Positions 31,365 through 61,744 of a stretch of DNA of 64,000 nt are shown in pieces. Origin of the DNA: an uncultured Actinomycetota bacterium. GTDB taxonomy: Bacteria; Actinomycetota; Actinomycetes; S36-B12; UBA10799. Numbering within the stretch: the first letter of the stretch is position 1; the number at the start of each line of letters is the position of its first letter. A program made the position numbers and the translations under genes. The stretch spans positions 166,245-230,244 of the forward strand of contig CAVTCZ010000009.1 in assembly GCA_963733395.1 (NCBI GenBank), in the 5' to 3' direction. The notes beneath the pieces are model-generated. The model had not been told where the DNA came from and searched no databases. It saw only the letters and a program-made list of their open reading frames with translations.

Positions 31365-31541
31365 GCCGCGGGCGGTCTTTGTGACGACGTTGCGCGCCTG
31401 TCCGGCTGGTTCGTCACGAAGGTGCGCGGTCGAACCGCCCGGCAGCCCACAACGTCGTGACAAACCGCCCTGCGGACCCCACAACATCGTCACGAACGCC
31501 CGTGCCGGCCCGGGAAGTCCGCCCCGACCCCGGCCAGCGGG
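31365..31541 (+). repeat. Family-A intergenic repeat, copy A1 (~177 bp, MITE-like, terminal inverted repeats)
   Basis: Almost identical to 49705..49883 and, in reverse complement, to 44475..44662. Left end is GGGCGGTCTTTGTGACGACGTTG and right end is CAACATCGTCACGAACGCCCG. An internal 32-bp phased unit, ACAACGTCGTGACAAACCGCCC (31449) and ACAACATCGTCACGAACGCCC (31481), is present. Confidence 0.85.
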
Positions 31542-49704: not shown

Positions 49705-49883
49705 GCCCGCGGGCGGTCTTTGTGACGATGTTGCGCGCCTGTCCGGCTGGTTTGTCACGAAGGTGCGGGGTCGAACCGCCCGGCAGCCCGCAACGTCGTG
49801 ACAAACCGCCCTGCGGACCCCGCAACATCGTCACAAACCGCCCTGCCGGCCCGAGGAGTCCGCCACCGACCCCGGCCGGCGGG
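49705..49883 (+). repeat. Family-A intergenic repeat, copy A2
   Basis: About a dozen differences from A1 over ~177 nt in my hand alignment. It abuts the glucokinase stop codon (49887). Confidence 0.85.
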
Positions 49884-58500: not shown

Positions 58501-59541
58501 CTAGGGCTTCGGCCGACCTGCGCCGGCGAACTCCGACATGAACTCGTTGGTGAACAACTTCTCGTAGACGACGCCGTCCCGGGGGCTCTTCGCGTGGACG
58601 AAGTACCCGTCGCCGGTGTACACACCCGCATGCTTGCCGGTGCCGTAGAGGAAGACGATGTCACCAGGGGCCAACTGCGTGATGTCCACCCGCTCGGTCT
58701 TGTCGTACTGGCCCTGGACCGAGTGCGGCAGTTTCACCCCGGCCTGCTCCCACGCCGCCAGCACCAGACCGGAGGCGTCGAAAGCGTCCGGACCGGTGGC
58801 ACCCGCTTCGAACGCTTTGCCCGCCTGCTTGACGGCGAATTTCACAACCGGCTTGGTGGTGGACTCAGGCAACTCCGAGATCGCGTCGACCGCATCATCG
58901 GCTTGATTCTGCTGCTGCTGCTGTTGCTTGGCCAGTTCGTCTGCGAGTTGTTGCTGCTGCTCGACCTGCAACTGGGAAAGCAGGGATGTCGATTCCGCGA
59001 CCTTCGCGTCGATCGCCGCCTTGGCGTCGAGGATGTCGTTACGCGCTCTGTCGGCCTTCTTCTCAGCCTTCTCCAGGGCGGCTTCATCCCGCACCAGTTG
59101 TTGCTCGGCCACTTCCGTGCGCACGAGGGCCGAGTTCTGCTGACTGGCGATGATCCGGGCGGTGTCCAGCGTGACCAACCAGTCCGACGGCGCCTCGGTC
59201 GCCAACATCAACAGACTCGGATCCACGCCGCCGTTGCGGTAGATCTGACTGACGACCTGGTTCAGGGTGTTCTGGCTGGCGGCGAGGCTCTGCTGGGTGG
59301 CGGCGAGTTCGGCCTGCTTGTCCGTGACCGCCTGCTGGGCCTCCTGCCACTCGATGGTGGCGTCGTTGGCCTCCTCGGCGGCAGCGGCGGCCTGTTGCTG
59401 CAGGTCGGCCAACTGCGTCTGCACCTGGGCGATCTGCTGGTCGATGTCAGCGTGGGCGACCGAGACCGGAAACAGCAGCAGGGCGCACGAGAATCCCAGC
59501 AACCAGCGCCGGGTTGACCCGATACGTCCCCATGACACCAT
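58501..59541 (-). CDS. RipC-like coiled-coil + NlpC/P60 protein with the catalytic Cys replaced by Ala
   Basis: ATG 59539-59541, signal peptide ...FPVSVAHA, long Gln/Ala coiled coil, then an NlpC/P60 domain reading GPDAFDASGLVLAAW...GKHAGVYTG...FVHA. Codon 58774-58776 is GCC (Ala) where the DCSG Cys is expected. Confidence 0.8.
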   Translation of the reverse strand: MVSWGRIGSTRRWLLGFSCALLLFPVSVAHADIDQQIAQVQTQLADLQQQAAAAAEEANDATIEWQEAQQAVTDKQAELAATQQSLAASQNTLNQVVSQIYRNGGVDPSLLMLATEAPSDWLVTLDTARIIASQQNSALVRTEVAEQQLVRDEAALEKAEKKADRARNDILDAKAAIDAKVAESTSLLSQLQVEQQQQLADELAKQQQQQQNQADDAVDAISELPESTTKPVVKFAVKQAGKAFEAGATGPDAFDASGLVLAAWEQAGVKLPHSVQGQYDKTERVDITQLAPGDIVFLYGTGKHAGVYTGDGYFVHAKSPRDGVVYEKLFTNEFMSEFAGAGRPKP

Positions 59542-59572
59542 TGTGCACCCGATCCGCGGAGCATGGCCCACC

Positions 59573-59749
59573 TCACACGGCGCGCACGAAGCGTAACGGG
59601 GCAACGAGCCCGGAGGCGGCCAGCGCATCCATGGCTGCGACCTCGTCGACAGTCAACTGACCATCGGCTGGGGAATCGAGTAGAGCTGTCACCACACAGT
59701 CCGCGCATGCGGCTGGTCGGGCTGTGCAACGAGCACAATCAATGAGCAT
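59573..59749 (-). CDS. Small Cys-rich protein (CxxC-x6-CxxC)
   Basis: MLIDCARCTARPAACADCVVTALLD..., 58 aa, directly upstream of the ripC-like gene. Confidence 0.45.
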   Translation of the reverse strand: MLIDCARCTARPAACADCVVTALLDSPADGQLTVDEVAAMDALAASGLVAPLRFVRAV

Positions 59750-59794
59750 CTGAGGTCTCCTCACGTCGTGTGCCGACCGTAGAGAGACCCTCTG

Positions 59795-59828
59795 ACAAAA
59801 CCGTCGCTCCGGATTCGAACGGGGAGTC
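59795..59828 (+). repeat. Family-C 34-bp direct repeat, copy 1
   Basis: ACAAAACCGTCGCTCCGGATTCGAACGGGGAGTC differs from copy 2 (60304..60337) at 4 of 34 positions. Confidence 0.85.
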
Positions 59829-59864
59829 AGGTGGCGCAGGGCGAGCTCGGCGGCCGATCACCGC

Positions 59865-59986
59865 GAGTGTTGCGCGGTTGCGGTCCGCGGACCACGACTG
59901 TTGCACGGTTGTCGGTTCTGCACCCCCAAAACCAGCAACCGCGCAACAGTCGTGGGACGACACCAGCAACCGCGCAACAGTCGTTG
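59865..59986. repeat. Dyad-symmetric array of four copies of a ~20-bp motif (CAACCGCGCAACAGTCGT) with 31-bp phasing
   Basis: Inverted copies are at 59867-59883 and 59894-59915. Direct copies are at 59933-59953 and 59964-59984. The inner pair can form a ~20-bp stem. Confidence 0.85.
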
Positions 59987-60062
59987 CGGGCGGCGGGACC
60001 GCGCCAGGATGGCGACCGTCGGCGACCCGCGGGGCGTGGGCTGCCGGTGTTGGTGAGTGTTC

Positions 60063-60111
60063 GTGCAGAACGTTGACGTTCGGCGAACCGCTGAACGTCA
60101 ACGAACTGCAC
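60063..60111. repeat. 19-bp-stem imperfect hairpin with reshuffled arm fragments downstream
   Basis: GTGCAGAACGTTGACGTTC, loop ggcgaaccgct, then GAACGTCAACGAACTGCAC. CGAACTGCAC and CGTCAACGAAC recur at 60120-60144. Confidence 0.8.
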
Positions 60112-60303
60112 CAACGCCATCGAACTGCACGAGCGTCAACGAACCCGTCCGGTCCGACCCCCGGGCACCCACCGAGGAGTGGTCACCCGAGCCGGCCGGG
60201 GCCGCAGCAGCCTGGACCGGCCACCGGCACTGGCAGGACCCCTGTACCACACCCCGCACCGCACACCGCCAAGATCAGACTCCCCGCTCACATCCGAAGC
60301 GCC

Positions 60304-60337
60304 ACAAAACCGTCGGTTCGGACTCAAACGGGGAGTC
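60304..60337 (+). repeat. Family-C 34-bp direct repeat, copy 2
   Basis: ACAAAACCGTCGGTTCGGACTCAAACGGGGAGTC. It is flanked upstream by the inverted GACTCCCCG at 60278-60286. Confidence 0.85.
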
Positions 60338-60432
60338 GCCGGTCCTGGCCGGTTCGGGGGCGTCGATGCCAACCACCAGCACCCCTGACCCCCCGCCGCA
60401 GTTCAACGGTCCACAGCAACGGCGCCGACGGG

Positions 60433-61515
60433 TCAGCCGTCACCCAGGCCAGGCGCCCGCAACGGCCGTTCCTCCCCCGGATCCAGCCAGGGCAGCGCGG
60501 CGAAGACCTCGTGGCGGCTGCCGTCCGCGGCCTCGACCGGTCGCAGCACCGGACGGGCCCGCAGGTTGGGGTGCTGCATGGCCTGCGCGAGAGTCAATGC
60601 CGGACCCACGCAGGTGTCCGCGAACGCCAGTTCGGCCAGCCAATCGGCCCGTGGCCGGCCGGCGAAGGTCCGTTGCAGGATCGCCCTGAGATCCCCTTGC
60701 TGCGCAGGGTCGTACTGGGCGGCCTTCCACTCGGGCAGGCCGATGCGGTCCAGGATCTCCGCGAAGAACTTCGGCTCCAGCGCACCGACTGTCAGCCACA
60801 GTCCGTCAGCACACTCGTACACCTCGTAGCAGGCCCACTTGCCGGTCAGATCCCACGGCGTGTCGGGAGACTGCCCGGACGCCAGCCAGCCGCCGAGCGG
60901 CAGTTGCGCCAAGGACATGGCCGCGTCGACCATGGCCACCTCTGAGCGCACGAAGCGGCCGCTGCTGCTGACCCGCAGCCCCGCCACCACCGCCAGAGCG
61001 GCGTGCAGGCCCGCCGCGACGTCGGCCATCTGCACACCCGGAGTGCGCGGGTCACCACCCAGAGTGAGCACCCCGCCGTAGCCGAGGGCGTTGATGTCGT
61101 GCCCCGGCACCTGCTCGAGCTCACCACCGGAACCGTAGGCGTCGATGGTCACGTGGACCAGGTCGGGCCGCAGCTCCTCGAGCCGGGCAGGCCCGAAGCC
61201 GAGGCGATCCAGCACGCCGGGCCGGAACGAATCGACCAGGACGTGGCACTGCGAGACGAGTTCGGCGAATCCCTGGGAGCCCGCCTCGGTCTTGAGGTCC
61301 AGGACCCGGCTGGACTTGCCCCGGTTCAACTGCACGAACGCCCCGGACTCCCCGGACGCCAGATACGGGCCCACCCACCGGGTGCCGTCCCCTTCCGGCG
61401 CCTCCACCTTGATGACCTCGGCGCCGAGTTCGACCAGGATGACGGTGGCGAAGTTCCCGGGCAGCAGCCGGGTCATGTCGATGACCTTCACGCCGGTCAG
61501 GGGCAGCTCAGGCAT
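60433..61515 (-). CDS. CaiB/BaiF family (class III) CoA-transferase
   Basis: ATG 61513-61515. MPELPLTGVKVIDMTRLLPGNFATVILVELGAEVIKVEAPEGD is a family III CoA-transferase N-terminus. Confidence 0.85.
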   Translation of the reverse strand: MPELPLTGVKVIDMTRLLPGNFATVILVELGAEVIKVEAPEGDGTRWVGPYLASGESGAFVQLNRGKSSRVLDLKTEAGSQGFAELVSQCHVLVDSFRPGVLDRLGFGPARLEELRPDLVHVTIDAYGSGGELEQVPGHDINALGYGGVLTLGGDPRTPGVQMADVAAGLHAALAVVAGLRVSSSGRFVRSEVAMVDAAMSLAQLPLGGWLASGQSPDTPWDLTGKWACYEVYECADGLWLTVGALEPKFFAEILDRIGLPEWKAAQYDPAQQGDLRAILQRTFAGRPRADWLAELAFADTCVGPALTLAQAMQHPNLRARPVLRPVEAADGSRHEVFAALPWLDPGEERPLRAPGLGDG

Positions 61516-61744
61516 CGGCTGCCCTCGCAACGACCTCGACGGCGTCCGTGGCCCCGCACCAGCGGCAGGTGACCGTCTCGATCTCGTCGAACAAGGCGTC
61601 CTCCTCCTCGACGATCACCTCCCCGGCGAGATCGAAGTGCCAGAACTGCTTGGCGCGCGTGCTGCGAACGACGTCGAACCGGGTCAGGTTCCCACACCGC
61701 GAACAGCGCCAACGGGTCGTGTCGTCGGGTACTGAGATGGCCAC
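61508..61744 (-). CDS. Small zinc-ribbon protein (CxxC ... CxxC)
   Basis: 78-aa ORF with WRCSRCGNLTRF ... VTCRWCGATD. Its stop lies 4 nt inside the CoA-transferase start region. Confidence 0.55.
   Translation of the reverse strand: MAISVPDDTTRWRCSRCGNLTRFDVVRSTRAKQFWHFDLAGEVIVEEEDALFDEIETVTCRWCGATDAVEVVARAADA

Follow-up and report, generated by a model that had tools for sequence, protein, structure and literature searches.

The window, a stretch of 64,000 nucleotides analysed at its full length, corresponds to positions 166245-230244 of contig C9 in the genome under study (G000, hereafter the host genome), which comprises 3.69 Mb in 22 contigs, with 68.5% G+C and an assembly completeness of 94%. 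The gap of interest is flanked by genes that all lie on the minus strand. On its downstream side is a small Cys-rich protein gene (59573-59749, minus strand) taken from the ORF list, for which no Pfam family was matched; it is the first gene of an operon shared with the gene of a RipC-like NlpC/P60 protein (58501-59628, minus strand). On the upstream side lies a CoA-transferase family III gene (60433-61530, minus strand; PF02515, E = 1.7e-86). The preliminary description had placed the region upstream of the small-Cys/ripC operon, which stands. In the mechanical ORF list the small gene starts at GTG 59764; the most likely start is instead the ATG at 59749, giving a protein of 58 aa. A Shine-Dalgarno-like GAGGAGA is found 7 nt upstream of this ATG, and the tblastn alignments of the protein in 11 congeners begin near the same Met.

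Two 34-mers (59795-59828 and 60304-60337) are located 509 bp apart in the gap as direct repeats, identical at 30 of 34 positions, and the number of chance matches expected in dinucleotide-preserving shuffles was 0. Four copies of the 18-mer CAACCGCGCAACAGTCGT (59863-59880 and 59894-59911 on the minus strand, 59936-59953 and 59967-59984 on the plus strand) form a dyad in which each same-strand pair is phased at 31 bp; 0.1 matches were expected by chance, and none of 100 dinucleotide-preserving shuffles reached four. Further along, a hairpin with 27-nt arms (60059-60085 and 60089-60115) and three subsequent 19-nt tandem units (60094-60150) has a predicted DNA fold of -29.7 kcal/mol (z = -5.2), while CGGGGAGTC (59820-59828 and 60329-60337) has an inverted partner, GACTCCCCG, at 60278-60286. 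These features had been described beforehand, the hairpin as one with a 19-bp stem, and all were recovered, as was the absence of a convincing gene, since Pfam searches on five frames through the gap gave no match for any ORF. An Rfam search, which had also been suggested, was run on the whole window and yielded 0 matches at gathering score and nothing credible at permissive thresholds; the best sub-threshold match was RNA-OUT (24.5 bits against a cut-off of 41), the best E value was 0.057, and these matches were weak, hairpin-type and chance-like.

The genome-wide repeat search proposed in the preliminary description recovered dispersed copies both of the 18-mer array and of a 501-bp element that contains it, here called M (59803-60303, plus strand). 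By blastn of the region against the host genome, positions 42-541 of the region were found in about 10 near-full-length copies with 79-90% identity; in total, the host genome carries about 12 copies of M that are 74-92% identical. M is thus small, multicopy and non-coding, with no Pfam match. It was restricted to the host genome among the 14 genomes of the genus compared by blastn, and had no match in 72,556 plasmids. An alignment of 10 copies with their flanks revealed sharp ends, GG(T/C)GCTTCGG...CCGAAGCGCC, outside of which identity falls to the background of about 36%. The copies differ by about 10%, indicating that the burst that produced them is not recent.

The ends of M are terminal inverted repeats of 26 bp, with the consensus GG(T/C)GCTTCGGAT-N4-GCGGGGAGTC, which has 78 matches in the host genome. 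At this locus the left repeat, GTCGCTCCGGATTCGAACGGGGAGTC (59803-59828, plus strand), has a PWM score of 21.3, and the right one (60278-60303), with a score of 41.6, forms part of a right end of about 94 bp (60210-60303, minus strand). The element is bounded by a perfect 8-bp target-site duplication: the first copy of ACAAAACC (59795-59802) is native sequence at the end of a conserved block, and the second (60304-60311), matching it at 8/8 positions, doubles as the left flank of an older element. When the terminal-repeat matches were paired at distances of 200-580 bp, 22 bounded MITEs were obtained in the host genome, 13 of which show 8-bp duplications matching at 6-8 of the 8 positions. No credible pair spaced as in an insertion sequence was detected among the 78 matches.

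An intact element of the parent type was found in the congener G011 (1,436 bp, L034 1431-2866), with terminal repeats matching those of M and, around it, the perfect 8-bp duplication TGCAATTC. The product of its 431-aa ORF has a DDE_Tnp_ISL3 match (PF01610, E = 9e-53), and the right 94 bp of the element align with the right end of M (local alignment; blastn, G011:C15:8148-8241), which is therefore homologous to the transposase-proximal end of the congener element. Eight bp is the classical length of ISL3 direct repeats, and published ISL3 inverted repeats also start GG...CGGA (PMC7643977). The DDE_Tnp_ISL3 domain is present in 5 of the 14 genomes of the genus; none was found in the host genome, where tblastn detected only decayed fragments of ISL3 transposases (e.g., C19:296730-296983 and C13:54715-54777). 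The 18-mer was not found inside intact ISL3 elements.

M thus resembles ISL3 insertion sequences and their MITEs in its 26-bp terminal inverted repeats starting with GG, its 8-bp target-site duplications, the homology of its ends to an intact element whose DDE_Tnp_ISL3 transposase has the ISL3 zinc-ribbon-like N-terminus, and its many copies without coding capacity. It differs from them in its mosaic make-up, with two unrelated families of palindromic repeats inside, in residing in a genome devoid of an intact parent, and in that its DNA matches none of the plasmids searched; in addition, the parent-type transposase shares only about 35% identity with the ISL3 transposases annotated on actinobacterial plasmids. 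Mosaic or minisatellite-bearing MITEs are represented by the Tn3-derived TIMEs (PMC4133298) and by a MITE of Porphyromonas gingivalis that has a minisatellite inside (PMC4596501). Those elements are reported to be likewise non-autonomous, with an interior unrelated to the parent transposon or with tandem repeats, but belong to other transposase families. An ISL3-derived MITE family is hereby documented in a genus of Actinomycetota that has not been cultured and is represented solely by metagenome bins.

The comparison of ripC upstream regions that had been suggested was also carried out. The ripC orthologue was located in 13 genomes of the genus and the upstream DNA was compared from 11 of them, none of which had the 18-mer or the insert at this site. 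In nine of the 11 congeners, the gap from the small Cys-rich protein gene to the CoA-transferase stop codon measures about 40-120 bp, the stop codon lying between 2-5 nt and about 60 nt from a conserved block, and the gap ends in GACAAAAC(C/G), which represents the empty target site. The CoA-transferase gene is missing at the locus in the other two, L028 (G009) and L029 (G001). A small zinc-ribbon gene was observed in these two directly after the ripC operon, 170-330 bp on.

The conserved block, ...CCGTAGAGAGACCCTCTGACAAAACC..., was apparent in the alignment of the 11 congener intergenic regions; in all of them it reads ...CCGTAGAGAGACCCTCTGACAAAAC(C/G)... beside the small Cys-rich protein gene and ends in GACAAAACC. 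On the minus strand the congener versions read TTGTCA(C/G)AG, about 8 nt, CTANNNC. In the host genome the corresponding promoter-like block (59765-59802, minus strand) consists of TTGTCA, 11 nt and TACGGT, with a TANNNT candidate for the -10 at 59776-59781. To judge from its sequence and position, the block plausibly contains an actinobacterial -10 element some 25 nt ahead of the ATG; a scan for sigma-70 consensus promoters gave no match, and TTGTCA and TANNNT, at a spacing of 11 nt, are closer together than a standard -35/-10 pair allows. The TTGTCACA within it presumably resembles an MtrA half-site; MtrA controls NlpC/P60 genes in Corynebacterium. M is inserted exactly at the distal end of the block and leaves it intact. 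Since both the -10-like block and the octamer are preserved, the operon's own promoter was probably unaffected by the insertion. The long hairpins may incidentally halt read-through from the upstream CoA-transferase gene.

The segment between M and the CoA-transferase gene appears to hold a second element. This putative remnant of a decayed MITE, about 101 bp long (60312-60412, plus strand), has a left terminal repeat at 60312-60337 (PWM 12.5) and a degenerate right one at 60387-60412, whose PWM score of 0.6 lies at about the 98th percentile of the background and is the second-best on the minus strand of the region; about 50 bp between them are unassigned. We interpret it, with moderate confidence, as an older ISL3-type MITE. 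The sequence next to it, ACAGCAAC (60413-60420), is identical to ACAAAACC at 6/8 positions and, read from the letters, is probably a decayed third copy of the target duplication; 12 nt separate it from the CoA-transferase stop codon at 60433. The 34-bp direct repeat is thereby resolved into the 8-bp target duplication plus the 26-bp left terminal repeat of two adjacent MITEs. Back-to-back MITE ends also occur elsewhere in the host genome (C17:156268/156300). The left terminal repeat of this copy of M is atypical, as it starts with GTCG and not with GGTG, and is closer to the repeat of the adjacent remnant (22/26) than to the consensus, a likeness that could reflect gene conversion or local duplication instead of two independent insertions.

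Taken as a whole, the gap very probably records two insertions of gene-less, ISL3-derived MITEs, the larger of which has captured two families of palindromic repeats. The terminal repeats and target duplications were observed directly, as were the families of copies, the empty sites of the relatives and the intact parent-type element of a congener, and the nested-MITE option, one of several offered in the preliminary description, is the one that they bear out. The native intergenic spacer, of about 50 bp, would thus carry a pile-up of two non-autonomous transposons. A small ISL3-type MITE would first have entered the octamer ACAAAACC, in the spacer that separates the stop codon of the CoA-transferase gene from the operon's promoter block, and would later have decayed to its present 101 bp or so; the 501-bp MITE of the same family would then have inserted into the promoter-side copy of the octamer, duplicating it again (59795-59802 and 60304-60311), this order of events being the one that we infer. 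Both ends of M would derive from an ISL3-family insertion sequence (the 26-bp terminal repeats and the 94 bp of the transposase-proximal end), and its interior would be made up of two palindromic repeats, P and H, each of which also occurs alone. Movement would be mediated by an ISL3 DDE transposase acting in trans, which would recognise the terminal repeats and make the 8-bp staggered cut typical of the family. The insertions are ordinary in kind, and they do not constitute conserved regulatory DNA of the operon for the cell-wall hydrolase.

The repeat P (59861-59986) contains the four 18-mers, with two tandem 31-bp units per arm. Its consensus of about 125 bp, CCGCGAGTGTTGCGCGGTTGC...GCAACCGCGCAACACTCGCGG, includes 18-mers of the GTTGC type. 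In the blastn search of the host genome, positions 97-219 of the region (about 122 bp) gave more than 100 matches on nearly all contigs and in both orientations. The genome has 95 full copies; 78 clusters display the exact LLRR arrangement. With up to 2 mismatches, 419 18-mers were counted against 1 in the reversed-genome null; isolated matches at up to 3 mismatches are mostly due to chance, given 74 in the same null. The spacing is rigid, at 31 bp in 61/65 left arms and 60/65 right arms, and the distance across the loop is 41 bp in 50/65. The DNA of P has a predicted fold of -55 kcal/mol whichever strand is folded (z about -7.7 to -7.9). Most copies (75/95) lie in non-coding DNA, which makes up about 21% of the genome according to a crude gene caller; convergent gaps hold 42% of them, against 21% expected by length, and the copies are mostly placed at 3' ends, beside unrelated genes.

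P was detected in 12 of the 14 genomes of the genus, its copy number ranging from 0 to about 100 among the 14. The 27 genomes examined from the same family and order, which represent 21 other genera, all lack it, and when 185,579 species representatives were scanned for the exact pattern, it was retrieved from only three metagenome bins; P is found only in this genus. In the other species it is mostly present in a 58-bp form with one unit per arm. One orthologous convergent gap harbors an LLR version in one congener (L008 6819-6909), an LR version in another bin (L002 1895-1952) and no P in the host genome (C22:16316-16420), and for other copies the position is orthologous from one species to another. 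Orthologous copies with a varying number of units indicate that P is old and that its arms gain or lose 31-bp units in place. At solo copies no target-site duplications were recognisable, the boundaries being fuzzy and placed about 3-6 bp outside the outermost 18-mers.

The three variable positions of the 18-mer were compared within and between the arms of 65 solo copies. Within an arm, the two tandem units carry the same base in 49-56 of them, whereas the opposite arms are complementary in 20-24, below the roughly 33 expected by chance, and no compensatory covariation between the arms was seen. P therefore undergoes concerted evolution within its arms and avoids a perfect palindrome, possibly because perfect long palindromes are unstable.

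In the host genome, P is non-randomly associated with ISL3 ends. The repeat is carried by 20 of the 22 bounded MITEs (e.g., C3:144611-145037, C16:27420-27687 and C8:86235-86466), whose remaining interiors represent three or more groups unrelated to one another, and it is always located 21-41 bp from one terminal repeat; the MITE family of this genome has repeatedly captured a genus-specific, REP-like palindrome. In pairwise comparisons of 10 copies of M, identity is 96.4% in the P segment (59855-59990) and about 89-90% in H, in the right part and in the right terminal repeat, so that divergence in P is slower than elsewhere in the element by a factor of about three. On the other hand, 51 of the 95 copies of P in the host genome have no terminal repeats above the 95% background level, and none were found near 19 copies sampled in congeners; these repeat-free copies indicate that P is independent of the insertion sequence. 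Targeted insertion, preferential amplification and retention are possible causes of the link. One version of it, in which P would act in cis as an array recognised by a protein of its own (a host factor or the ISL3 transposase complex), and this protein would favour the transposition or retention of ISL3-ended MITEs, would agree with the 20 MITEs on at least three backbones, the placement at 21-41 bp, the slow divergence and the rigid phase; the 31-bp phase without selection for hairpin complementarity fits double-stranded binding sites better than a folded strand. We regard this version as quite unlikely all the same.

Other readings of the gap were weighed against the MITE insertions. The preliminary description had put forward the four 18-mers as a multi-site operator, here for a regulator of the cell-wall hydrolase operon, and the strict phasing at about three helical turns, the dyad symmetry and the position upstream of the operon would all suit such a role. 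The array at this locus, however, is one of about 95 dispersed copies that mostly mark the 3' ends of unrelated genes, it is missing upstream of ripC in the 11 congeners, and it lies within a transposon, with about 80-200 bp between it and the conserved -10-like block downstream; its distribution largely refutes the operator, which we hold to be very improbable. A long structured 5' leader, a riboswitch or an sRNA would explain the strong predicted secondary structure, but is highly improbable in view of the Rfam result (RNA-OUT at 24.5 bits being the nearest match to any family) and of the insert missing at the same site in the 11 congeners, so that the region is not conserved at the locus; moreover, the -10-like block stands between the insert and the gene, which would probably leave the insert outside the operon's 5' UTR. 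A decayed protein-coding gene is scarcely credible: the long stop-free frames that might speak for it, such as 59770-60945 on the plus strand, are usual in 68% G+C DNA, five frames lack any Pfam match, and three repeat families account for the sequence. A tempting false lead is thus removed, as the repeats upstream of the ripC-like operon are transposon debris, and the conserved control region of the operon is the block of about 40 bp beside the gene, with its putative promoter role.

A function acquired after the insertion is a different matter, and one that we consider unlikely on balance. The hairpins of P and H might have been co-opted as a bidirectional terminator or insulator, devoid of a U-tract, between the CoA-transferase gene and the ripC operon, a role likened to that of REP elements in enterobacteria. 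Consistent with it are the stable fold of P on either strand, its enrichment in non-coding DNA and in convergent gaps, its high identity within copies of M and the presence of some copies at orthologous sites in different species. The stems, however, have no U-tract and terminator-like matches comprise only weak stems of 5-7 bp, the variable positions of the 18-mer do not covary (about 21/65 paired, against about 33 expected), and the site is empty in all the congeners, so that any role at this locus would be recent and dispensable.

The closest analogue of P is the REP/BIME/REPIN group of Proteobacteria. The two share a short, imperfectly palindromic sequence in high copy number, a mostly extragenic location favouring 3' ends, a restriction to particular lineages and a variable number of units. 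They differ in that P has no GTAG-type head, its arm units are direct repeats at a rigid 31-bp phase (LLRR) instead of alternating, its host is an uncultured genus of high-G+C Actinomycetota, and it is not accompanied by a RAYT, the RAYT/Y1 transposase (PF01797) being absent from the host genome and from 12 of 13 congeners. Autonomous forms of P, with a gene between L and R units, were also sought in the host genome, and the two candidate intervals were discarded, as they hold ordinary genes. A literature search for a described equivalent of P found none. The ISL3-MITE context of P, its restriction to a single genus and the evidence from orthologous sites are new here, and the link with ISL3 ends and the absence of a RAYT-type mobiliser are of moderate interest for the biology of bacterial repeats.

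The hairpin repeat H (60059-60150), which comprises the two arms and the three 19-nt units, represents a third repeat family, with solo copies in the host genome and in six congeners. Another family, A, was noted elsewhere in the window (31365-31541 and 49705-49883), with a motif repeated at a 32-bp phase inside a hairpin. The kinship of the repeats in the gap with families A and B, proposed earlier from a shared CAAC(A)GTCGT core, was not sustained, as BLAST gave no homology to family A; P, H and family A have in common an architecture in which the arm units of a hairpin are repeated in tandem, while no homology is detectable between their sequences. One copy of H is inserted in an ISL3 transposase relic of the host genome (C19:296640-296983), a frameshifted N-terminus in which the H-family hairpin, here with two 19-nt tandem units, replaces the first 23 or so codons.
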